Shown: positions 7,341-21,611 of the stretch, piece by piece
Layout of the letters: every line of letters starts with the position of its first letter
Position numbering within the stretch: position 1 is the first letter of the stretch
From: Rhodocyclales bacterium GT-UBC
Lineage (GTDB): Bacteria; Pseudomonadota; Gammaproteobacteria; Burkholderiales; Rhodocyclaceae
Direction of reading: 5' to 3'
Assembly (NCBI GenBank): GCA_003583745.1
Contig: QXPY01000003.1
Location: 84,052 to 108,051 of the forward strand
DNA length: 24,000 bases
Translations under genes and position numbers: made by a program
The notes under the pieces: model-generated
Told to the model about the DNA's origin: nothing
Seen by the model: only the letters and a program-made list of their open reading frames with translations
The model's database searches: none

Positions 7341-10046
<2,706 letters not shown>

Positions 10047-10058
10047 AAGCGAACCCCC

Positions 10059-10064
10059 TATAAT
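10059..10064 (+). promoter_or_regulatory. Perfect -10 hexamer TATAAT upstream of the ferredoxin gene
   Basis: TATAAT at 10059-10064, then AGGAGA (10077-10082) and the ATG at 10088. The -35 region (TTCCAG) is poor. Confidence 0.25.
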
Positions 10065-10087
10065 TGGCGGCCCCACAGGAGAAACCG

Positions 10088-10396
10088 ATGAGCTATTTCC
10101 AACATCACGTCTTTGTCTGCACCAACCAGCGCGAGGCCGGCGAGCAATGCTGCAACAGCATTGGCGGCAGCGAAATGTTCGCCTATGCCAAGGACCGCAT
10201 CGGCGCGCTGAAGAAAAACGGCCCGGGCAACATCCGCATCAACAAGGCCGGCTGCCTCGGCCGCTGCGACCAGGGCCCGGTGATGGTCGTCTACCCGGAG
10301 GAAACCTGGTACTCCTTCATCGACAAGGAAGACGTCGATGAAATCATCAACGAACACCTGCTCGGCGGCCGCGTCGTCGAACGCCTGAAGATCTGA
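10088..10396 (+). CDS. Thioredoxin-like [2Fe-2S] ferredoxin domain protein
   Basis: The start at 10088 (MSYFQHHVFVCTNQR) follows an AGGAGA Shine-Dalgarno sequence. The Cys pattern (VC...CC...GCLGRC) and PVMVVYPEETWY are typical of this family. The ORF track starts at 10064. Confidence 0.8.
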   Translation: MSYFQHHVFVCTNQREAGEQCCNSIGGSEMFAYAKDRIGALKKNGPGNIRINKAGCLGRCDQGPVMVVYPEETWYSFIDKEDVDEIINEHLLGGRVVERLKI

Positions 10397-10400
10397 CGCC

Positions 10401-11039
10401 ATGAAAGCACCGGAAGAGAAGATCGTCGTTGCCGGCCCGGTCGGCAACATCGACGTCATCATGGAGCGCCCGGACGCACCGCGCGGTATCGCGCTGATCG
10501 CCCACCCACACCCGATGGGCGGCGGCGCCAATACCAACAAGGTCGCCTATACCCTGGCCCGCACCTTCGCCAGCCTCGGCTATGCCGCCTTCCGCCCGAA
10601 TTTCCGTGGCGTCGGCGGCACCGAAGGCGAGCATGACGAAGGCATCGGCGAGACCGAGGACCTGCTGGCCGTGCTGGAAGAAGCCAAGCGCCGTTGCGGC
10701 GACCTGCCGGTGGCCCTGGCCGGCTTCTCCTTCGGCGCCTACTGCCAGACCCGCGTCGCCAAGCGCTTGGTCGAAGCCGGGCATCCGGCCCAGCGCCTGG
10801 TCCTGGTCGGCACCGCCGCCGGCCATGTCGAGGGCAGCCGCCAGTACGACACCGAAGCCGTGCCGCACGACACCATCGTCATCCACGGTGCCGAAGACAC
10901 GCTGGTCCCGCCTTCGAACGTCTATGCCTGGGCCTTGCCGCTCGACCTGCCGGTCATCATGGTGCCGGGCGCCGACCACTTCTTCCATCGCCGCCTGCAT
11001 CTGATCCGCGACATCATTACCCGCGCATGGCGACACTGA
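10401..11039 (+). CDS. Small alpha/beta-fold hydrolase (COG2945-like)
   Basis: 212 aa with a nucleophile elbow in LAGFSFGAY, IALIAHPHPMGGG, and C-terminal GADHFF. Starts 5 nt after the ferredoxin stop. Confidence 0.75.
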   Translation: MKAPEEKIVVAGPVGNIDVIMERPDAPRGIALIAHPHPMGGGANTNKVAYTLARTFASLGYAAFRPNFRGVGGTEGEHDEGIGETEDLLAVLEEAKRRCGDLPVALAGFSFGAYCQTRVAKRLVEAGHPAQRLVLVGTAAGHVEGSRQYDTEAVPHDTIVIHGAEDTLVPPSNVYAWALPLDLPVIMVPGADHFFHRRLHLIRDIITRAWRH

Positions 11040-11086
11040 ACGTCTCCAAGCTGCGCAAGGTCTATGGCGGCAGCTCCGCAAAATAA
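11027..11086 (+). pseudogene. 19-codon 5' stump of an ABC-transporter ATPase gene
   Basis: ATG at 11027 overlaps the hydrolase stop and encodes MATLNVSKLRKVYGGSSAK*. The first 15 residues parallel [12 protein letters not shown] of the intact ABC ATPase at 20670, including a 22-nt identical stretch. After that stretch the sequence diverges and stops. Confidence 0.55.
11051..11072 (+). repeat. Left copy of a 22-bp perfect direct repeat CTGCGCAAGGTCTATGGCGGCA
   Basis: Identical to 20718-20739. The 15 nt upstream are also 11/15 identical between copies. Sequence downstream of the repeat is unrelated. Confidence 0.9.
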
Positions 11087-11181
11087 GCCTCGGCATGAAT
11101 TCACTCGCAGTTGGTGAGGAGCTGGCTGCGATTTCAACCGCGGGCTCTTGAGCTTTCCTTCAAGAAAGGAACGAAGCGGCC

Positions 11182-11268
11182 TTACCCTCTTCTGGTGTCA
11201 GCTGTTTCACACGCAATCAACATTACCGATCCGGAGACGGCTAATTTCCCGATCATCCTGTTACTCAT
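11182..11268 (-). CDS. Speculative 28-codon mini-ORF with a lipobox
   Basis: Encodes MSNRMIGKLAVSGSVMLIAC|ETADTRRG*, with LIAC fitting the lipobox pattern. It lies 38 nt downstream of the acylase stop on the same strand. There is no convincing Shine-Dalgarno sequence, and it may be a chance ORF or the remnant of a lipoprotein gene. Confidence 0.15.
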   Translation of the reverse strand: MSNRMIGKLAVSGSVMLIACETADTRRG

Positions 11269-11305
11269 GGATGCGGGGGGGCACGACGGTCGGCGCCTCT
11301 GCGCT

Positions 11306-13498
11306 TCAGCGTTCAAAACTGAAGGCGAAACGCTCACCTTGGCGCCAGCGATGTAAATGCTTTTTCAGGAAGACGCCGAAGGGGTTGCCGCTGCTGGGCA
11401 TGTTGGCCAGGTAGGGATTGATCGCACCAGGGGCGAGATCGAAGACCATCTTGAAACTGGTGCCGAAGCTGTATGAACTGCCCCCACCGCCACCTTGGCC
11501 GCTGGTCAGGAAGTCGCAATTGCGGCGCAAGGCCGGGATTGTCTCGCGCGATCCGCCGTCGTAAGGATGCGAGGCGGAGAGTAGGCGACGCAGCAGGGGA
11601 TGGCGGCGCAGGGTGTGGCGATAATCGACGCGCGGAGGCTCGCTGTTACCGGTGCAGACCGAACGATAGGCGTCGCCGACGATGACTGCCACGGAAGCCG
11701 GCAGCGGCCAGTCGGCATCCGGCTCAAACACGATGGCCATGATATTCCAGCGATGCGCCGGCCACATGTCGAGGTAGCGCACGGCCAAGGGAAGCGACAG
11801 TTCGGACGAGAGAACGCGCAGACAGATGGCTTCGACCCAGCGCTCGAAGAGCAGCGATGGCCCGACGATGCGGGTATCCCCGCGCCACCCGGCGAGCGAC
11901 GAACCGGCCTGTGTCGAGGCGTCGAGCAGGGCCCATAGTCTGGGCATCCAGGTTGCGGCGAAGAGGTCGACGCGGTCATCCTGGATCGCCACGAAGCTGG
12001 CCGCGTCGTGCTGCGCCGTCGCGTCGAGCAGTTCGCGGATGCGCCAGGCCCGCGAAGGTGGGTGCCAGCGGTTGGAGATGTAGGGGGCCGGGATGAAATG
12101 CGTCGAATACTGATTGGCGTACAGGGCGACATCGTCGGGCGGGTTGAACTGGCTCGGCATGTCGTCGAAGGGCACATAGCCGCGCCAATCCCAGCGCGCC
12201 TCGGCGAGCGGCAGGAGCAGGCTGCCCGCTGCTTCGAGACCCTTTTCGCGCGCCGGTAGCAGGCCATAGACCTGCGTACCGATATTGTTCTCGCGGTCGG
12301 CATAAGCCGCGACACCGGGGGCGTTCTGCAAGCGCGCCAGCGCCGCGCGAAACTCCGGCCAGTTGCTGGCGCAATTGAGGGCGTACAGGCTGACCGAGCC
12401 GAGGCCGCGATCGAGCGCTGGCCAGCGCAGGAACAGGCCGAGGCCGTTACGTTCGAGCAGCATTTGCCCACCGGCGAAACCGTAGCTGCGATGGACCTCG
12501 CCCTTGCCTCGGCGTAGGCCGATTCCGCTTTCCCGACAGTCCAGCACCTCCCAACCGCGGAAAGTACGGACGCGCCTCCCGGCGAGATCCACCTCGCCCA
12601 CGAACAGATCCTGATTGTCCATCATCACGCCGGTCATACCCCAGGCGATGTCTCGGTTACGCCCGATGACGATGCCCGGTGCGCCGGGGAAATTTGAACC
12701 GAAAACGTCGAGTTTTCCGGCTGACCGCAGATGGAAGAAAAGATTGAAGCCGGGGCTGACCAAGCCCATGTGCGGATCGCTGCCGAGCAGGGGAAATCCG
12801 GATTTCGTCCGTTGCCCGCGCACCGCGAAGACATTGGAGCCGATATCCGGCGATTCCAGGCCAAGTTTGTCCAGTCCGCTGCGCGCCGAAACCAGCAGTT
12901 CCTCCAGCGCCGTGCCGAATTCATTGGCCGCGCCGGCCGGCAGGGCCGGGTGGGTCTGTCCGGCCTCGTCCATGCTCGAAAACAGGCACGCCGCCCGCTG
13001 CGTGCCCAGGGCCGAGGTCACCAGGCTGTGATAAAGCTCGAACTGCCAGGCCGAATTGATGAAATATTTGAGATGCGCCACCAGGTAGACGTCGACCAGG
13101 CTGAACGCCTGCGGACGATAGCCGAGGGCGATGAATTCGGCGGGCAGGATTTTCGTCTCGACCAGGGCCTGGTTGATGCCCTCCACGTAGGCTCGCAAAT
13201 GGCTGCGCTCGGCTGCGTTGTCCGGATCGTCGACGGCCCGCTCGGCCAGTCTGCGCAAGTCCAGGCTGCGCTGAAAGCGGTCGGTCGCCAGCGACGCCGT
13301 GCCCAAAACTTCGCTCAGCGTACCGCTGGCCAGGCGACGGGTCAGGTCGAGCTGCCAGAGCCGCAGGCGTCCGGTGGCGTAGCCCTGGGCGTGATAGACG
13401 GCGGTATCGCTATCGCCCTCGATGCTCACCAGTTGCGTGTTGGGGAGCGTGATCGTGGCCTTGCCCCAGGCGCTCCGCAGGGAGATTCGCCGCTTCAT
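11306..13498 (-). CDS. Penicillin-acylase (peptidase S45) family Ntn hydrolase without a signal peptide
   Basis: Family N-terminal region (YHAQGYATGRLRLWQLDLTRRLASGTLSEVLG...DRF) and a probable autoprocessing site G|SNVFAV with the Ser codon at 12838-12836, followed by LLGSDPHMG. The ORF track extends to 13891, but that stretch is Arg/Ala-rich overlap with the upstream SDR gene. The ATG at 13498 overlaps the SDR stop (ATGA) and gives 730 aa starting MKRRISLRSAWGKATITLPN, with no hydrophobic signal. Confidence 0.85.
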   Translation of the reverse strand: MKRRISLRSAWGKATITLPNTQLVSIEGDSDTAVYHAQGYATGRLRLWQLDLTRRLASGTLSEVLGTASLATDRFQRSLDLRRLAERAVDDPDNAAERSHLRAYVEGINQALVETKILPAEFIALGYRPQAFSLVDVYLVAHLKYFINSAWQFELYHSLVTSALGTQRAACLFSSMDEAGQTHPALPAGAANEFGTALEELLVSARSGLDKLGLESPDIGSNVFAVRGQRTKSGFPLLGSDPHMGLVSPGFNLFFHLRSAGKLDVFGSNFPGAPGIVIGRNRDIAWGMTGVMMDNQDLFVGEVDLAGRRVRTFRGWEVLDCRESGIGLRRGKGEVHRSYGFAGGQMLLERNGLGLFLRWPALDRGLGSVSLYALNCASNWPEFRAALARLQNAPGVAAYADRENNIGTQVYGLLPAREKGLEAAGSLLLPLAEARWDWRGYVPFDDMPSQFNPPDDVALYANQYSTHFIPAPYISNRWHPPSRAWRIRELLDATAQHDAASFVAIQDDRVDLFAATWMPRLWALLDASTQAGSSLAGWRGDTRIVGPSLLFERWVEAICLRVLSSELSLPLAVRYLDMWPAHRWNIMAIVFEPDADWPLPASVAVIVGDAYRSVCTGNSEPPRVDYRHTLRRHPLLRRLLSASHPYDGGSRETIPALRRNCDFLTSGQGGGGGSSYSFGTSFKMVFDLAPGAINPYLANMPSSGNPFGVFLKKHLHRWRQGERFAFSFER

Positions 13499-14481
13499 GC
13501 GCCCTGGCTCTCGCTCGCCTCGGGCAGCAGCGTCCGAACGTACTCGTCGAAACGCTCGCCGAAAGTCGAACAATGATCCTGCCAGGGCCAACCCAATTCG
13601 GACTCGGCTCGCGTGCTGCTGTACAGATAGCTGCTGCCGTCCATGACCTGCAAGGCTTCCCTCGACAAGGGCAGACGAACGCCCAGCGGTCGTAGGGCAT
13701 CGCAGATTCGCGCCGGCCAGCGCAATGATGCGGGCAGCACCTTTTTCGGCAGCGGCAGCCCGGCCACCGCCGCCGCGCGCTCGATCAATTGCGCCATGCC
13801 GACCGTTTCCCCGGTCAGCAGATAGTTCCGCCCGATAACGCCGTGCTCCAGCACGCGCCGCAAGCCATCGCAGACGGCATCGACCGGGCACAGCTGGAAG
13901 CGGCTCTCGCTGACCACCTGCAGGGGCAGCTTGCCGTGCACGAATTGGCCGAGCGCCTGGGCCAGGTCGCTTTGGTCGCCGGGCCCGAAAATGCCGCCGG
14001 GAATGGCGATAATGACGGGCGCCCCACGTTGTTGCATCGCTTCGGCCAGGCCATGGCCGACGTGTTTCGTCTGCTCGTAGAACGAGCGGAAGTGCCCGTT
14101 GTGACGGCTGCTTTCATCTCCCAGACCGCCCTCCGTTTCGCCAAGGGCGGCGGTGCTGCTGACATGAATGATGCGAGGTACCCCGGCACGCCATGCCGCG
14201 TAGAGGACTTGGCGCGTCGCTTCGATATTCGCTGCCGCCATCTCACTCCGGTCGACGCCACCGATCCGGTAACGCGCCGCCAGATGAATCACCGCATCGC
14301 AAGAGGCCAGATCCGCCTGCCAGCCACCGGGCGTTTCGAGCTTGGCCGGGACAAACTGAGCCGGCAGATCGACCGGCGCGCCGGGCCGAACGACGGCCAG
14401 CACCTCATGGCCGGCGGCGCTCAGGTGTCTTGTCAGATGGCGGCCGACAAAGCCGTTGGCCCCGGTCAGAAAAATTTTCAT
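13495..14481 (-). CDS. Extended SDR (NAD-dependent epimerase/dehydratase/reductase family)
   Basis: Starts MKIFLTGANGFVGRHL (Rossmann GxxGxxG) at 14481, overlapping the LuxC-like stop (ATGA). Contains a YEQTK catalytic Y-x3-K. About 328 aa. Confidence 0.85.
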   Translation of the reverse strand: MKIFLTGANGFVGRHLTRHLSAAGHEVLAVVRPGAPVDLPAQFVPAKLETPGGWQADLASCDAVIHLAARYRIGGVDRSEMAAANIEATRQVLYAAWRAGVPRIIHVSSTAALGETEGGLGDESSRHNGHFRSFYEQTKHVGHGLAEAMQQRGAPVIIAIPGGIFGPGDQSDLAQALGQFVHGKLPLQVVSESRFQLCPVDAVCDGLRRVLEHGVIGRNYLLTGETVGMAQLIERAAAVAGLPLPKKVLPASLRWPARICDALRPLGVRLPLSREALQVMDGSSYLYSSTRAESELGWPWQDHCSTFGERFDEYVRTLLPEASESQGA

Positions 14482-15566
14482 GGTGTCGTGTCGCAACTGA
14501 TAAAACGCACCCATTGCGCCAGCTCCCACTGGCCGTCGTGCGGCGCGGTCAACGGGCGTTCGTGCATGCGCCCGAGGCGGCAGCGGTGATACACCGGCAC
14601 ATCGTCGGGGAATTCGGCTGATACGGCGTCCGATGCCGGCCAGATGCCGAAGGTCTGCAAAATGGGCGCCAGCATCGCCGAGCCGGCGACGATCAGGCGG
14701 AACCCGCGGGGCAACCAGTTGGCAGTGTCCATGGCCGAAATGGAAACGCCCCAGCCGGTTTCCGCATTGACCTCAAGCTTGACGGCCTCGCCCAGCCGTG
14801 CCAGCAGCGCCAATTCGCGCGCTTTGAGCAACTGGCGCAAGCGAATTTCCTCGGGAAGCGACGGCAAGTTGGCAAGCCTCGCCACCAGGGCCGCAAATAC
14901 GGCCTTCGCCGTGTCATCGTCCGGCACCAGAACGAACTGCGGCGAACTGCAAACGTTTTGCATGAACAGGCACGTATCGCGGATCAGCGCATCGATACAG
15001 GCGTTCTGCAAGGCGGCTGACGCCGGCCACTCGGCTATGCCGGCGCCGCTCATCTGCGGGCCGTATTCGATGAGGCGCACACCCGGTGCCGCGACCTGCC
15101 GATAATGCCGGATCAGGTCGGCGCTGCCGGCCATGAGAACGGCATCGACGGCGGTCAGCAGTTCGTCGTCCCTTTGCGACAGGCTATCCCAGTCGGCAAT
15201 CCGGCAGGCATCGTCGTTCCAGCCCAGTGCGTCGCGCAATGCCAGGAGCGCTGGCTGGCTGCTGCGCGACTTCAGCGTTAGGCGGTTGCCGGTCAGTGCT
15301 GCCGCCACCAGCGCAGCAATCACGCCGAGATGGTCGTTTTCGCTGATCACCGCCAGCACGTGCCCAAGGGGTCGCCATGAGCGGTCGCCGAGGTCGGCGT
15401 TCATTTTTGCGGTGAGTACCTTCTCATCGGCCAGCATCCTGACCCGCTGGCGACAGAATTCCGCCGTCGCCACATCGGCCACCGGCCAGTCATCCTGCCA
15501 ACCCTGGAGGCAGAGGCGCAGGGCACTGGCCACCTCGGCCGGCGAACGCCTGAAATCGACGGTCAT
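14478..15566 (-). CDS. LuxC-like acyl-CoA (acyl-protein) reductase
   Basis: 362 aa that aligns by eye with Photorhabdus/Vibrio LuxC. [34 protein letters not shown] matches [41 protein letters not shown] matches DQRACFSAQ, which holds the catalytic Cys. There is a C-terminal HDG motif. It is shorter than the ~480-aa canonical LuxC. Confidence 0.72.
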   Translation of the reverse strand: [362 protein letters not shown]

Positions 15567-16612
15567 GCCGCCGCAGAAGCAGCCTGCGCCGCGCAGGTCG
15601 CCGACGGATCACTGGCGCGTCCGAGGAATTCCAGCCAGGGGCGCGCCTTGCCACAGGCACAGCCACTCCCCATGCGGCCGAGGTCTTCGCTCAGCAGATC
15701 GTGGCTCGGTAGCGAGGCGAAGAAGGGATTCTGCAGGCGGATCAGGCCGCTTTCGCCGGGCGCGGCCGGCGCGCCGTCGGCCCGCACGATCTCCAGCCGC
15801 GAATAGCGCGGGATATGAAAGCGGCCGTGCGGGCAACTGATGTAATGCAGCGGATGTTCGGTCATGCCGAAAATATCCCGAATATCGACCTTTGCCGCGC
15901 CGCCCAACGCCTCGCCGAGACGGGCCATGATCTGCGGGCGGTCCATTTTCCGCGTCATGCCTTTCCAGCCGCCGCCGGTCAGGCCACGCACCATGTTGCG
16001 GAAGGGTAGCGGCGTTTGTGGCGCACTCAGTGCCAAATACTCGAAATGCACGGTCAACCCGAAAATAAAGCAAAAATCGCCATCCTTCGCCCAGCGCGCC
16101 AAGGTTTCCCAAGCCAGTTCAGGCTGAAAGCGTCCGCTGTCATCGACGGCGAAGACGATGTCGGCACTCGGCGCACATGCCGTGAAGCGCAGGAAGCTCG
16201 TCGCGTAACCGGCTTGCGGTGCCCGCCGGGGATCGGGCGAGAGCAGCAGGAAGCGGGCGGGATGCTGACTGACCATGCCCTGGCGATAAAAAATCTGGCG
16301 CATGCCGGCCTCGATGCGCCGCATGCTGGCTGCGTCGAAAAAGACCGACGCCGGACCGTTTTTTCCCGTACCCGAACTCGACAGCCACACGCCTTCGCCC
16401 TCGACCGGCGTCCCCAATTCGCAGCGCTTGAACAGTCCAACCGGGATCAGTGGCCGCTGTTCGCCTTCCCAAAGCGCGGCGTAGGCCGGGTTGCGCGCAC
16501 GGTGCCAGGCATCCGCCTCGGCCATGGCGGCATTGAAGAGAGCGTCGTCGGCCGCCCCGGCATAGGGGTCGTCCAGTAGGCTGAGTTGGTCGATGCTTGA
16601 CGGCGTATTCAT
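15563..16612 (-). CDS. LuxE-like acyl-protein synthetase (ANL/PaaK-like)
   Basis: 349 aa. LSSSGTGKNG matches FTSSGTNG of LuxE. LTGGGWK matches ITGGGWK. IRDIFGMTEHPL matches IRDIFNQVELNT. The C-terminal Cys (SATCAA) lies where the acylated Cys of LuxE sits. ATGA overlaps with both neighbours. Confidence 0.75.
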   Translation of the reverse strand: MNTPSSIDQLSLLDDPYAGAADDALFNAAMAEADAWHRARNPAYAALWEGEQRPLIPVGLFKRCELGTPVEGEGVWLSSSGTGKNGPASVFFDAASMRRIEAGMRQIFYRQGMVSQHPARFLLLSPDPRRAPQAGYATSFLRFTACAPSADIVFAVDDSGRFQPELAWETLARWAKDGDFCFIFGLTVHFEYLALSAPQTPLPFRNMVRGLTGGGWKGMTRKMDRPQIMARLGEALGGAAKVDIRDIFGMTEHPLHYISCPHGRFHIPRYSRLEIVRADGAPAAPGESGLIRLQNPFFASLPSHDLLSEDLGRMGSGCACGKARPWLEFLGRASDPSATCAAQAASAAA

Positions 16613-17826
16613 GGAAGCGTGTTGAACCCGTTGAAAGTCTGTTCGGAAAGTCTGGCCATGTCGCGCACCAGGACGCGCAAGTTGGGACCGTGGTTGATCA
16701 GCGCCCGATGGTCATGCGCCTGGCTGATCACGACCGCGTTGTCGCCCCAGGGCACGGCGTCAGACGAGGCGACCAAGGGGCCGCACGGCGCTGCACTGAC
16801 ATGGCGCAGCGGAAAATGGTCGTCGCCAATTTCGAGGCAACGTGCCAGAAGGTCGGGCGCGCGTCGGCGAATCGCCTCGACCGTCGCCGCCACCGGTTCG
16901 CCGTCATGGCCGCTGACGGCCGTGCTGACGGCCTGGTTGGCAGCATTGACGAACCAGGTTTGCGGCACCGACTGCTCCGCGGCGTTCGTTCCGGAAATGG
17001 CCTGTGAAAACTCCCTGGCCTGGGCCAGCTGCCCTGCCAATCCGGCGTAATGGCAGGGCAGACCGACGTCCCTCCAGCTTCTGGCATCGAAAATGTCGAA
17101 GCCGGCAACCGGCTCGCCAGTTCGATCCATCAAGCGCGATTCGGCCGGCAGGAGTTGATACACCGACGGACAACTGGCCACAGCTTCGGCGCTGAAGCCG
17201 TGGAAGCGCCGGGTGGCCGGCCAATAGCCATTCTGCAGCATGTTGATGGTGTTCCACGAGCCGAGCCAGGGCGGGCCGAAGGCATACCACTTGGCGACCG
17301 ATTCACGCATTTCCGGACGGCATTCCCTGAGCCAGTAGCGAATGGCCATGTTGGCGACGGACTGGCCAATGATGATGATTTTCTGGTCCGCGCCGAAGCG
17401 CGATTGCAAGCGCTCGATTTCAATTTCGATCAGCCGGCCGAGGCGCCGGTAGTCGGCCCGCCAGTCGTAGGCAAGAAAGAAGAGGTCGCAATCCAACCGA
17501 TAGCCCAGACCGACTTCGAGCACGTTGACCACGTCGCGGGTGACGATGCTGCTGAACAAGCCCGGCACGATCTGGAATTCATACAGGGTCTGGTTGGCGA
17601 GCACGCGCCAGGGATCGTCATGGTCGACCCCGTAGTCGGCCTCGTGCGGCTGACGAAAGAGCAGGCCGCGGTAATCGCCCCAAATGTATTCGCCGCACTG
17701 CCGATCGAAGAGCTTGGTCCCGAACAGCCCGGGAATGTAGAGCACAGGCAGCCGGCGAGCCGGCGACTGGCGGGATGAACGCAAAACGACGCGCGAGCGC
17801 AGCCGGGAGTACGCCTTGGCAAGCAT
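16609..17826 (-). CDS. LCAT-family (lecithin:cholesterol acyltransferase-like) alpha/beta hydrolase
   Basis: 405 aa with IPGLFGTKL, the family hallmark YDWR (FLAYDWRADY), and the nucleophile elbow IIIIGQSVAN at the position of the GHSLG motif. Confidence 0.7.
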   Translation of the reverse strand: MLAKAYSRLRSRVVLRSSRQSPARRLPVLYIPGLFGTKLFDRQCGEYIWGDYRGLLFRQPHEADYGVDHDDPWRVLANQTLYEFQIVPGLFSSIVTRDVVNVLEVGLGYRLDCDLFFLAYDWRADYRRLGRLIEIEIERLQSRFGADQKIIIIGQSVANMAIRYWLRECRPEMRESVAKWYAFGPPWLGSWNTINMLQNGYWPATRRFHGFSAEAVASCPSVYQLLPAESRLMDRTGEPVAGFDIFDARSWRDVGLPCHYAGLAGQLAQAREFSQAISGTNAAEQSVPQTWFVNAANQAVSTAVSGHDGEPVAATVEAIRRRAPDLLARCLEIGDDHFPLRHVSAAPCGPLVASSDAVPWGDNAVVISQAHDHRALINHGPNLRVLVRDMARLSEQTFNGFNTLP

Positions 17827-17833
17827 TCAGCGA

Positions 17834-19249
17834 TCAGCGGGGCTGCAGCGGGGCCGGCGGTACGTCGCAGCTTCCGGATTGCGATTGCTCGGTAAGGACC
17901 GTCGGGAAATGTGCCCGGTCAAACACTTCCAGCACGCGAACATCCTTGTCCGCATCGAGATCGATGCGCATGGCCACGACCCGCGCACTCGGCTTCGATA
18001 CCAGGAATCGCAGGCAGGACGATTGCCCACCCATGATTTCCTTGCCATCGGCATCGAGGAAAACATAGCGGATGGGGTTTTCCGTGGCTTGCTCGATGTG
18101 TGCCGCGCCAATCGCCCCACGGAAAACGTGGGTCAGCGAACGACCGGGCTTGCCGGCAAACGCGACCGGCTTGCTTGTTTGGGGCAGGTTCACGATAGGT
18201 AAAACGTGCCCGCAGTGGCCGCATCGATTGCCGTCGAGATGCAACGCAATGCCTTCGCCACTGCGCCGGATCACAACCTCACGGCACTGAGGGCAACAGG
18301 TGTCGACGCTTACGGTATTGGCGGTATTGCCCAAATAGACAAATTTCACGCCGGCATCAAGCGCTTGGCGCCGGGCCTGTTCCAGAAAATTCACATCGGT
18401 TCGCGCCACCTGCGTATACAGGTAATCGGGGTGGAAACGCACATAGTGCAAGGGAATCTCGTCGTCCAGGTTGTCCAGCATCCAGTCGCAGACCCGGCGA
18501 GCCTGTTCGAGGTTGTCGTTGCGCCCGGTGATGCATAGGTTGGACACTTCGAGGTGCGGTCCGCGGCCGCCCTGGCGCGCCCGGTAAACCTGCTTGATAC
18601 CTTCGAGCACTGGCTGCAACTCGCTGCGCGTGAATTTGCGGTAGAAGTCGGCATCCAGCGATTTCAGTGAAATGCTGAAAATGTCCATGACCTCGAGCAA
18701 CTCGTCGATGGCCTCCGGCCCGATGGAAAAGGCTGACTTGTATAGATTGCGCAAACCGGCCTGACGGGCGAGGCGCGCCGTGTCCATGACGAACTCTTGC
18801 CAGACCACCGGATCGTTATAGGTCCACGACAGGATGCCGATGCCGTGACGCACTGCGTAATCGACGACCTGCTCCGGCGTGTAGCGGGCAATATCCTGCT
18901 CACGAACCAGCCTCGCCTGACTGGTCTGCCAGTTCTGGCAGAAGTCGCACTTAAGCATGCAGCCGATGTTGCCGAGCGACAGGATCGGAGCGCCCGGAGC
19001 GTAATGGTAAACCGCCTCGGATTCGATGCGCTCTTCGGTCATCGGCACCGATTTGCCGTAATTCAGCGTCAGGAGCTCGCCGTTGCGGTTGTAACGCACG
19101 CCGCAGAAGCCGAGGCCGCCCTCGGGGATGCGGCACTTGCGGGGTGACAGGTGGCATTCGACTCGGCCGTTAGGCAGCGCCTTCCATAGGCTGGCAGGAT
19201 GCATTCCGTCCTGGAGGGACGCGGTCAAGGTGTGGAGTTTGTCGGACAT
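17834..19249 (-). CDS. Radical SAM enzyme, AmmeMemoRadiSam/PFL-activase-like, with an extra C-terminal domain
   Basis: 471 aa with the CX3CX2C motif in GNIGCMLKCDFCQNW and a family-like N-terminus (LWKALPNGRVEC...GFCGVRYNRNGELLTLNYG). Also LHYVRFHPDY, YLGN and a Cys4 ribbon (CCPQC...CGHCG). About 115 further residues follow with no motif I recognise. Confidence 0.85.
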   Translation of the reverse strand: MSDKLHTLTASLQDGMHPASLWKALPNGRVECHLSPRKCRIPEGGLGFCGVRYNRNGELLTLNYGKSVPMTEERIESEAVYHYAPGAPILSLGNIGCMLKCDFCQNWQTSQARLVREQDIARYTPEQVVDYAVRHGIGILSWTYNDPVVWQEFVMDTARLARQAGLRNLYKSAFSIGPEAIDELLEVMDIFSISLKSLDADFYRKFTRSELQPVLEGIKQVYRARQGGRGPHLEVSNLCITGRNDNLEQARRVCDWMLDNLDDEIPLHYVRFHPDYLYTQVARTDVNFLEQARRQALDAGVKFVYLGNTANTVSVDTCCPQCREVVIRRSGEGIALHLDGNRCGHCGHVLPIVNLPQTSKPVAFAGKPGRSLTHVFRGAIGAAHIEQATENPIRYVFLDADGKEIMGGQSSCLRFLVSKPSARVVAMRIDLDADKDVRVLEVFDRAHFPTVLTEQSQSGSCDVPPAPLQPR

Positions 19250-19251
19250 CG

Positions 19252-20223
19252 TTATCGGGACTCAATCAATTTTCCCTGCGCGGCGAGAACCATGCCGACG
19301 TAGGTGTCATGTAGAAATGTCATAACCGTCTGCTGTGCAGCGGGGAATGGGGCATTCTGGGCACCGATGCGAACAAAGCCGGCGCCCTTCTGCAAACCGA
19401 CCGTCAGCTTTTCATCAGTGCGATAGCCACGCCGCATGACGTCCTGGAAAAGCGGGTGCGTATCCAACCCGAAGAGCAGCAGGTCGTGCCGGATCAGTTC
19501 TTTCGGCGTCATGCTGCTCAGCATGGCCATTTCAAAATGCCAGTCTTCTTCCTGCAATGCCTTATCGAGATTGCGCTTCGGATCGGTCTTCAGGGACAGC
19601 GGCAGTTCAAGCCGGGCAGTGGCCACCGTGTATTTGAACGGCCCGATGCCCAGCGAAATGTCGAGTGCCGGCGACGGGTCGGCCGCCGTACGAATATCGC
19701 GAACTTGGGCAAAAGTATCGATCAGCCGTGACGAGAACGGCGGGGCGACAATCTGGGCCTGAGCCTGGGCCGGCGTCAGTACGACCTGCTTTTCTTCGCC
19801 GATCGTCACCGTCCACCCATCCACCTCCGCCCTATCCGGCGAACCGGCACCCGGCACCGTGTAGGTGCTCAGGCGGTTGTGCCAACCATTGCTATCCTTG
19901 CTGATGACGAGATGGATCAGGTAGGGCCGCGACCGCGTTCCCCACTGACCTTTTGCATGTAGCAGGACATCGGCGACGATGGCACTTTCGCCATACACAT
20001 GATTGTTGGCAATGCGAATCTCGCGCCGAGCTTCATCAACACTGGCCACGGTATGTGCGTCATCGATTACCAGCCGATTCGACACCCCTGCCTGCTGCGT
20101 TCCCGCCGCCGTCGGAAGCCGCATGATGAGCGGCCCCGTTAGTTCCGCGGCCGACACATCCAAAGTTACCATCAAGCCCACTCCCAACCCCAAAAGCCCT
20201 ACCAGATTCAGAAACACGGTCAC
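19252..20223 (-). CDS. Hypothetical protein, probably exported or membrane-anchored
   Basis: 323-aa ORF from a GTG at 20223, ending 2 nt before the radical SAM ATG. The N-terminus MTVFLNLVGLLGLGVGLMVTLDVSAAE is signal/anchor-like (VSA|AE) but has no basic n-region. An alternative ATG at residue 18 (20172) is preceded by GGGAG and would remove the hydrophobic segment. I recognise no family. Confidence 0.6.
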   Translation of the reverse strand: MTVFLNLVGLLGLGVGLMVTLDVSAAELTGPLIMRLPTAAGTQQAGVSNRLVIDDAHTVASVDEARREIRIANNHVYGESAIVADVLLHAKGQWGTRSRPYLIHLVISKDSNGWHNRLSTYTVPGAGSPDRAEVDGWTVTIGEEKQVVLTPAQAQAQIVAPPFSSRLIDTFAQVRDIRTAADPSPALDISLGIGPFKYTVATARLELPLSLKTDPKRNLDKALQEEDWHFEMAMLSSMTPKELIRHDLLLFGLDTHPLFQDVMRRGYRTDEKLTVGLQKGAGFVRIGAQNAPFPAAQQTVMTFLHDTYVGMVLAAQGKLIESR

Positions 20224-20669: not shown

Positions 20670-21611
20670 ATGCCCATGGCCCATCCCAATACAGCTTGTC
20701 CGCTGATTGTTTCCAACCTGCGCAAGGTCTATGGCGGCAACGAAGTCGTTGCCGGGCTTTCGTTCGCCGTCCAGCCCGGCACCTGTTTCGGCCTGCTCGG
20801 GCCGAACGGGGCCGGCAAGACGACGACGCTGCGCCTCTGCCTCGGCCTCACTGCACCGGATAGCGGCGAGATCAGCCTGGCCGGCCGGCCGATTCCCGGC
20901 GAAGCCCAGCAGGCCCGGGCCAAGGTCGGCGTCGTGCCGCAGTTCGACAACCTCGACCCCGATTTCACCGCCAGCGAAAACCTGCTCGTCTTCGGCCGCT
21001 ATTTCGGCCTCAAGGAAGCCGAAGTCAAGGCGCGCATTCCGCAATTGCTCGAATTCGCCGGCCTCACCGGCAAGGCCGATGCCCGCATCGCGACCCTCTC
21101 CGGCGGCATGAAGCGCCGGTTGACCCTGGCCCGCGCCCTGGTCAACGACCCCGATATCGTCTTCCTCGACGAACCGACCACCGGTCTCGACCCGCAAGCC
21201 CGCCACCTGATCTGGGACCGCCTGAAACAACTCAAGTCGGCCGGCAAGACGCTGATCCTGACCACCCATTTCATGGACGAGGCCGAACGCCTGTGCGACC
21301 GGCTGATCGTCATCGACCACGGCAAGAAGATCACCGAAGGCAGCCCGCGCCAGTTGATCGCCGAGCACATCGAACCCCAGGTTGTCGAAGTCTTCGACGA
21401 AGGCAGCCACGACCTGCAAGGTTTCGTCGAAGCCAACCGCCAACTGGCCGAACGCGTCGAAACCAGCGGCGAAACCGCCTTCTTCTACTGCCGCGAACCG
21501 CGCCCGCTGCTGGCCAAACTGGCCGAAGCCGACGGCCTGCGCTACGTGCACCGCGCCTCCAACCTGGAAGACGTCTTCATCAAGCTGACCGGTCGGGAAC
21601 TGCGGGATTGA
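20670..21611 (+). CDS. ABC transporter ATP-binding protein, ABC-2/NodI-DrrA type
   Basis: 313 aa with Walker [11 protein letters not shown]-loop VVPQFDNL, signature [15 protein letters not shown], Walker [13 protein letters not shown] and H-loop TTHFMDEAE. No Shine-Dalgarno sequence precedes either ATG (20670 or 20676). An in-frame TGA at 20628 prevents any upstream extension. Confidence 0.9.
20718..20739 (+). repeat. Right copy of the 22-bp perfect direct repeat CTGCGCAAGGTCTATGGCGGCA
   Basis: Identical to 11051-11072. It lies within codons 17-24 of the intact ABC ATPase gene. The two copies are 9667 bp apart (start to start). Confidence 0.9.

Follow-up and report, generated by a model that had tools for sequence, protein, structure and literature searches.

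The 24,000-nt window analysed here (positions 84,052 to 108,051 of contig QXPY01000003.1, Rhodocyclales bacterium GT-UBC) carries, at 17834-19249 on the minus strand, a gene for a radical S-adenosylmethionine (SAM) enzyme that resembles the radical SAM member of the AmmeMemoRadiSam system and has an additional C-terminal domain. Comparisons of sequence and predicted structure make it likely that the gene encodes a functional enzyme of a distinct, long-form sister clade and not a component of the AmmeMemoRadiSam system. The enzyme, its domains and the residues that mark the clade are listed here in window coordinates; residue counts refer to 100 long forms, of which 66 are database proteins and 34 are encoded in the loci that were fetched.

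17834-19249, minus strand: long-form AmmeMemoRadiSam-like radical SAM enzyme, 471 aa plus stop codon (open reading frame (ORF) and translation, TIGR04337, PF04055, AlphaFold2 (AF2), Foldseek)
18965-19249, minus strand: N-terminal domain, residues 1-95, with the Cys motif C32-x2-S35-x3-C39...C49 (Cys conservation in long versus short forms)
18320-18964, minus strand: radical SAM core, residues 96-310, with the cluster motif C97-x3-C101-x2-C104 (PF04055; invariant Cys; Foldseek matches to the cores of pyruvate formate-lyase activating enzyme (PFL-AE), QueE, HydE and RlmN)
18197-18319, minus strand: C-terminal Cys4 ribbon region, residues 311-351 (C319, C322, C343, C346), where the TIGR04337 match ends
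17837-18196, minus strand: clade-specific C-terminal domain, residues 352-471, consisting of a linker, a predicted seven-stranded beta-sandwich (about 370-442), the DRAHFP motif and a variable end (AF2; conservation in 29 diverse tails)
17903-17920, minus strand: signature motif D444-R445-A446-H447-F448-P449 (counts in the 100 long forms)
H384: 100/100 long forms
R414: 100/100 long forms
D444, R445 and A446: 99/100 long forms each
H447: 96/100 long forms
F448: 93/100 long forms
P449: 100/100 long forms

The gene is a single unbroken ORF of 471 codons, and its start fits those of the homologues, which likewise open with M-[SA]-D-K-L-H-T-L. Residues 21-351 match positions 3-330 of the 349 in TIGR04337, the NCBIfam model for the 'AmmeMemoRadiSam system radical SAM enzyme' ('AmrS'), with 276.5 bits against a curated cut-off of 220. 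The sole Pfam match, PF04055 (Radical_SAM), covers residues 96-256 with 52.5 bits (gathering score 29.5). A preliminary description of this DNA had recognised an AmmeMemoRadiSam-like core from its motifs, and all of those it quoted are found, including CMLKCDFCQNW (C97/C101/C104), LHYVRFHPDY, YLGN and the ribbon C319-x2-C322...C343-x2-C346. The three Cys of the cluster motif are invariant across the sequences compared, as are the four ribbon Cys, in long and short forms alike.

The AF2 model of the full protein, built from a 66-sequence alignment, has a mean predicted local distance difference test score (pLDDT) of 89.5 and a predicted template modelling score (pTM) of 0.91. When the whole model was compared with solved structures by Foldseek, PFL-AE (PDB 3c8f) ranked first (E 6.9e-11, TM score 0.70 on the target), followed by other radical SAM cores, with a Foldseek probability of 1.00 for PFL-AE, QueE, HydE, RlmN and LipA, that is, for the partial TIM-barrel radical SAM fold. 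The enzyme retains the CX3CX2C motif of the SAM-cleaving [4Fe-4S] cluster, together with a PFL-activase-like core and the Cys4 ribbon.

The N-terminal Cys motif had been described as degenerate (ECHLSPRKC), and it is: position 35 is Ser in the window enzyme, where all 15 short forms compared have Cys. The same replacement is found in 72/100 long forms, the other 28/100 having Cys. All 115 sequences (100 long and 15 short forms) have C32, C39 and C49. If this site binds an auxiliary Fe-S cluster, it would do so with three Cys ligands in most long forms.

The long form is widespread. In a search of 5.8 billion proteins, the best 120 matches were 436-508 aa in length, with 88-100% query coverage and 45-96% identity, apart from four truncated entries of 276-375 aa; the clade comprises at least 120 protein clusters at 90% identity. 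The taxa named for these best 120, where the source gives one, include Pseudomonadota (with Leminorella grimontii), Actinomycetota (Actinomadura, Micromonospora, Actinoplanes), Myxococcota (Archangium and other Myxococcales), Planctomycetota, Brocadiae, Elusimicrobiota, Chloroflexota and Magnetococcales. Where the long forms have an NCBI name, it is 'AmmeMemoRadiSam system radical SAM enzyme'. A scan of species-representative genomes adds Thauera sinica (81% identity), Streptomyces, Saccharothrix, Streptoalloteichus, Corallococcus, several Pseudomonas, Sericytochromatia, Aminicenantes and Flavobacteriales. Its lower-ranked matches are short forms, which align over residues ~1-351 alone. Beyond the Cys4 ribbon, short forms have another 5-25 residues and long forms another 104-156.

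A maximum-likelihood tree was built from 49 sequences, 34 of them long and 15 short forms, the latter including the genome's own canonical copy. All the long forms group together as one clade (100/100 support), set apart from the short forms on a branch of 2.3 substitutions per site. The phylogeny proposed in the preliminary description therefore places the window enzyme outside the canonical forms, and no characterised radical SAM clade that groups with it was found. On these comparisons, the long forms are a separate sister clade of the AmmeMemoRadiSam radical SAM family, with a predicted C-terminal sandwich in every member. Literature searches found no paper on the clade or on the gene cassette described below; one candidate article, PMC13149037, turned out to be unrelated.

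The canonical system is present elsewhere in the same assembly. A second TIGR04337 match, on contig C5, scores 617 bits and has AMMECR1 and Memo genes directly upstream on the same strand, so that a complete Memo-AMMECR1-radical SAM operon lies at contig C5:125124-127535 (loci L001, L006, L007). Since the three-gene system is complete there, the window enzyme can be regarded as a divergent paralogue. Neither AMMECR1 nor Memo was found among the window ORFs scanned, in agreement with the earlier remark that the enzyme is encoded apart from both partners, and neither lies within 10 kb in any of the 34 long-form loci. Only 7/56 sampled short-form loci (L036-L091), however, have one or the other within 10 kb, even after jackhmmer iteration, and many short forms are likewise orphans; orphan status by itself is therefore not unusual.

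The window enzyme shares with AmrS the N-terminal Cys domain, the CX3CX2C core and the C-terminal Cys4 ribbon, and is ~35-37% identical to the short forms over residues 10-350. AmrS is its closest relative by sequence, and its mode of action would be that of a PFL-AE-type radical SAM enzyme. It scores 340 bits lower on TIGR04337 than the genome's canonical copy. It differs from AmrS in being encoded without AMMECR1 or Memo alongside, in belonging to a separate clade, in having Ser as its second N-terminal Cys and in its length (471 aa versus ~350 aa), owing to the extra ~120-aa beta-sandwich with DRAHFP. Of five features that define the family, it thus shares the TIGR04337 cut-off only; because the other four (partners, architecture, Cys motif and phylogeny) are at variance, we do not file it as a member of the AmmeMemoRadiSam system.

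The preliminary description had singled out the C-terminal region of this protein (about residues 355-471) as an unrecognised domain and had proposed that profile searches and structure prediction be run on it. Both were run. Residues 352-471 have no Pfam or NCBIfam match, with only scattered single noise matches to Pfam at E <= 1, and no match among PDB sequences, even as a 29-sequence profile. A phmmer search of 1.84 billion representative proteins with the tail alone returned 9 weak matches to short fragments and repeat proteins and no free-standing family, and a word search with the region returned close full-length relatives and nothing else. By sequence, therefore, the sandwich is confined to the long-form clade. 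The region is indeed unannotated, but it is no peculiarity of the window protein, being conserved in every member of a large sister clade. Likewise, the statement that family members usually end soon after the Cys4 ribbon holds for the short forms and fails for the long-form clade. The concern that the tail might be a common and already annotated feature is borne out in its first half: the tail is present in every long form, and it is not annotated.

In the AF2 model, a linker of lower confidence (351-370) is followed by seven strands in residues 370-442 with pLDDT 93-95, and a model of the tail alone reproduces the seven strands with pLDDT 93-95 over the sandwich. Foldseek matches to the tail model are at best generic lectin-like or carbohydrate-binding-module-like sandwiches (E >= 8.6e-3, TM score <= 0.48). 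The 29 diverse tails are only ~20-35% identical overall, with H384, R414, D444, R445, A446, F448 and P449 invariant and H447 nearly so, and the DRAHFP motif is missing from the short forms compared. The pTM of 0.91 implies a fixed arrangement of tail and core in the model. Given the low overall identity of the tail, its few invariant polar residues and this high pTM, ligand binding or catalysis appears likelier than a generic docking surface.

In the same phmmer search, 29 repeated stretches of a giant protein of 5799 aa (P0122) matched tail residues 26-57, with 97 bits in total. This match may reflect a distant link of the sandwich to repeat domains of large surface proteins, or mere compositional similarity.

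The radical SAM gene is the first of a six-gene cassette. The other five follow downstream on the same strand, each spaced from or overlapping its neighbour by a few bases:

16609-17826, minus strand: LCAT-like alpha/beta hydrolase or acyltransferase, 405 aa, cassette gene 2 (PF02450, 41.9 bits)
15563-16612, minus strand: LuxE-like acyl-protein synthetase, 349 aa, cassette gene 3 (PF04443, 49.3 bits)
14478-15566, minus strand: LuxC-like acyl-CoA reductase, 362 aa, cassette gene 4 (PF05893, 66 bits)
13495-14481, minus strand: extended short-chain dehydrogenase/reductase (SDR), HpnA/OleD-like, cassette gene 5 (PF01370, 98 bits; TIGR03466, 153 bits, below cut-off)
11306-13498, minus strand: N-terminal nucleophile (Ntn) hydrolase of the penicillin amidase family, 730 aa from ATG 13498, cassette gene 6 (PF01804, 409 bits)

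The longest SDR ORF (13495-14529) opens at GTG 14529. Since family alignments begin at its residue 17 and ATG 14481 overlaps the stop of the LuxC-like gene, the SDR probably starts at ATG 14481 and not at GTG 14529.

The adjacent LuxE-family and LuxC-family genes, with an alpha/beta hydrolase in what would be the role of LuxD, recall the LuxCDE fatty acid reductase complex. The LuxE-like protein keeps the SSGT and TGGGWK motifs and has a remote match to LuxE of the LuxC-LuxE complex (7xc6_E, 29 bits). The similarity is at the level of Pfam families only: the LuxC-like protein is not a LuxC equivalog (NF052251, 20 bits versus a cut-off of 750), the hydrolase is LCAT-like and not LuxD, and no luciferase-like family match was found among the window ORFs scanned. 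The cassette also differs from LuxCDE in adding a radical SAM enzyme, an SDR and an Ntn acylase.

PF01804 covers the acylase over its whole length. Its nearest solved relative is 7eby (E 1.9e-40), a D-succinylase, which is an amidase of N-succinyl-D-amino acids. In comparison with solved acylases, namely D-succinylase and penicillin G acylase (PDB 7eby, 7reo), the beta-chain alignment starts at about residue 221 of the cassette protein, after the sequence G-S-N. The cassette protein differs from these enzymes in that no obvious signal peptide was seen at its coupled start and in lying within a cytoplasmic-looking operon.

A 323-aa ORF at 19252-20223 (minus strand), separated from the radical SAM gene by a 2-nt gap on its upstream side, has no Pfam or NCBIfam match. 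It was considered as a further cassette member and rejected: tblastn found no counterpart of it in the other cassette loci, and the stretch in common with T. sinica does not extend to it. It may be cargo specific to this lineage, or no real gene.

The full set of six genes (radical SAM, LCAT-like, LuxE-like, LuxC-like, SDR and Ntn acylase) was found in six loci: the window, Thauera sinica (L012), Leminorella grimontii (L008) and three metagenome contigs (L095, L096, L097). LCAT-like orthologues follow the radical SAM gene in the five other loci with 38-74% identity, orthologues of the LuxE-like, LuxC-like, SDR and acylase proteins are present in 5/5 of them, and pairwise identities among the partner proteins range across loci from 38 to 75%. 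The gene order differs in L. grimontii.

In two of the metagenome contigs, an extra gene of 227 aa stands between the radical SAM and LCAT-like genes (L095:10410-11093 and L096:10389-11072; 66% mutual identity). It has no family match and is not in the window.

At the nucleotide level the window resembles T. sinica over exactly 11315-19249, a block that runs from the acylase gene to the start of the radical SAM gene; the flanks are unrelated. Among 120 other genomes of the same family that were sampled, 78 have a short-form match and 0 have a long form. The cassette is also bracketed by a direct repeat:

11036-11072, plus strand: left copy of a 37-nt direct repeat (89% identity between copies, the last 22 nt identical)
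20703-20739, plus strand: right copy of the 37-nt direct repeat (spacing 9667 nt)

The repeat and the T. sinica comparison suggest an insertion event. Taken together, the shared block, the lack of a long form in the 120 genomes and the bracketing repeat indicate that the cassette was acquired horizontally as a six-gene unit.

Across the clade, the gene neighbourhoods are more varied. For GC-rich loci, neighbours were taken from Pfam-annotated gene calls. The commonest neighbour in the 34 long-form loci is a Cys_Met_Meta_PP enzyme, that is, a pyridoxal phosphate (PLP) enzyme of the Cys/Met type, which is found in 13, most often as the next gene downstream; other recurrent neighbours are LysE-type exporters, aminotransferases, AsnC regulators and a ferredoxin. 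No one gene accompanies the long form in all 34 loci, and most of those examined have no Lux-like neighbours. The six cassette-linked radical SAM enzymes form one subclade (92/96 support) nested among long forms with other neighbours, and the sister of this subclade (L094) is encoded between an AMP-binding enzyme with a carrier protein on one side and a Cys/Met PLP enzyme on the other.

These neighbourhoods bear directly on the origin of the tail. It had been proposed to check whether the extension co-varies with the LuxE/LuxC neighbourhood. It does not: the same H, R and DRAHFP residues are found in long forms without Lux-like neighbours. As the tail carries the same conserved residues in all 100 long forms and most loci examined are non-Lux, it predates the association with LuxC and LuxE; it is a hallmark of the clade and not a cassette-specific adaptor. 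The broader idea that the scaffold was recruited to an acyl pathway survives in part: a conserved acyl-processing cassette accompanies the enzyme in the lineage of the window (six loci), but the tail is not tied to that recruitment.

We infer that the substrate is a small molecule, and that neither AMMECR1, Memo nor a glycyl-radical enzyme is the target. The sandwich would dock on the core and contribute residues that bind or convert a small molecule with a carboxylate or amine group; a role in docking a partner protein is improbable. Because Cys/Met PLP enzymes, aminotransferases and LysE/RhtB-type exporters recur as neighbours, the substrate may be amino-acid-like, possibly of the homoserine or methionine type. 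In a speculative scheme for the cassette, the Ntn acylase and the LCAT-like hydrolase would split an N-acyl or lipid precursor into an acyl chain and an amine or amino-acid moiety, the LuxE-like and LuxC-like proteins with the SDR would activate the carboxylate and reduce it to an aldehyde or alcohol, and a 5'-deoxyadenosyl radical, generated by the radical SAM enzyme, would take the H from an unactivated C-H in one of the released pieces and so functionalise that carbon. One possibility for the chemistry is radical modification of the amine or acyl fragment that is set free from an N-acyl amino acid or an acyl-homoserine-lactone-type compound, although the chance that any one particular substrate is the right one is low at best. 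In its most far-reaching form, we offer only tentatively, and with less than even confidence, the proposal that the long forms are a new functional class of radical SAM enzymes, in which the sandwich (H384, R414, DRAHFP) completes the active site for an amino-acid-like or lipid-linked substrate, and that the cassette is a mobile pathway which makes or remodels an undescribed acyl or amino-acid-derived metabolite.

Several points weigh against this general reading. The PLP enzyme is associated with 13 of the 34 long-form loci and not with all; other long forms lie in a phosphoenolpyruvate (PEP)-mutase cluster, in a cluster of three radical SAM genes or near lipid genes. With contexts so varied, the clade may be functionally heterogeneous. 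The proposed substrate and reaction are read from the gene neighbourhood, and PFL-activase-like enzymes classically act on proteins.

This last point leads to the alternative that the window enzyme is itself a protein-modifying enzyme or activase like PFL-AE, acting on a cassette protein (the LuxC-like, LCAT-like or acylase protein) with the sandwich as its docking domain. PFL-AE (PDB 3c8f, 3cb8) is the best structural match to the core and has the partial TIM-barrel radical SAM fold in common with it; protein partners are assumed for the parent family; the radical SAM gene is tightly linked to the LCAT-like gene in 6/6 cassette loci; and the fold of the sandwich resembles binding modules. The resemblance to PFL-AE is nevertheless confined to 14-18% identity in a protein of roughly double the length, to which N-terminal, ribbon and sandwich modules have been added, and the models for glycyl-radical activases score far under their cut-offs (TIGR02493 (PFLA), 39.7 versus 231.75; TIGR02494, 25 versus 174.35). 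No glycyl-radical enzyme was found near the gene in the window, the genome's only glycyl-radical domain (PF01228) being on another contig, C35. Moreover, the same invariant tail residues occur where the neighbourhood has no cassette protein, and no neighbour is common to all long-form loci. We consider an activase role improbable.

Much less probable still is a true AmmeMemoRadiSam enzyme that works in trans, as a second copy, with the AMMECR1 and Memo of contig C5. The TIGR04337 score, the NCBI naming of its relatives and the presence of both partners in the genome would all fit, but the C5 operon already has its own 617-bit radical SAM enzyme, and the window enzyme sits in a separate clade on a long branch, has one domain more and a changed Cys motif, is part of another cassette that was acquired horizontally and belongs to a set of 34 loci with neither partner within 10 kb. 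About as little credit, if anything slightly less, is due to the reading that the tail was gained on recruitment to a LuxE/LuxC pathway and binds a Lux-like partner or the acyl substrate: the existence and conservation of the cassette would fit, yet the tail is ancestral to the whole long-form clade, and the LuxCE subclade is nested among lineages that have other contexts and the same tail. An annotation or assembly artefact (read-through, fusion or frameshift), for which nothing speaks beyond the missing family annotation, can be set aside with near certainty, being refuted by the single open frame, by the recurrence of this length and these motifs in over 100 independent sequences of many phyla and by the confident fold prediction. 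A functional enzyme of a separate long-form clade thus accounts best for the evidence.

Recognition of this clade would correct the annotation of hundreds of proteins in many phyla, including those of Streptomyces, Pseudomonas, myxobacteria and planctomycetes, that are misnamed as AmmeMemoRadiSam enzymes. It also defines a new domain with clear targets for mutation (H384, R414, D444, R445 and H447). Two contexts recur: the radical SAM enzyme with a Cys/Met PLP enzyme and a LysE exporter, probably for a non-proteinogenic amino acid, and the mobile six-gene cassette. New radical chemistry or a new metabolite might come to light in either. At present, the long forms are one of many radical SAM subfamilies awaiting characterisation.

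Some individual loci deserve mention. In Actinomadura sp. ATCC 31491 (L009, 4918-15257), the long-form gene lies inside a phosphonate-type PEP-mutase cluster together with genes for HMGL-like, PhyH, phosphoribosyl pyrophosphate (PRPP)-synthetase-like, beta-eliminating lyase, ATP-grasp and Cys/Met PLP proteins. Actinoplanes siamensis (L092, 8001-12982) has three consecutive radical SAM genes, encoding the long form, a 501-aa protein and a HemN-like protein, followed by a LysE exporter. Long forms of Planctomycetota and Flavobacteriales are found near lipid-related genes (fatty acid desaturase, LGT, MMPL). Four loci of Pseudomonas spp. (L020, L021, L024 and L029, ~8500-14600) share a compact conserved set of genes around the long form, consisting of an AsnC regulator, a 239-aa protein, the radical SAM enzyme, a Cys/Met PLP enzyme that is CGS-like in L020, an aminotransferase and a LysE exporter. 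This set looks like a small amino-acid-metabolite cluster and would be the simplest system in which to study the chemistry of the clade.

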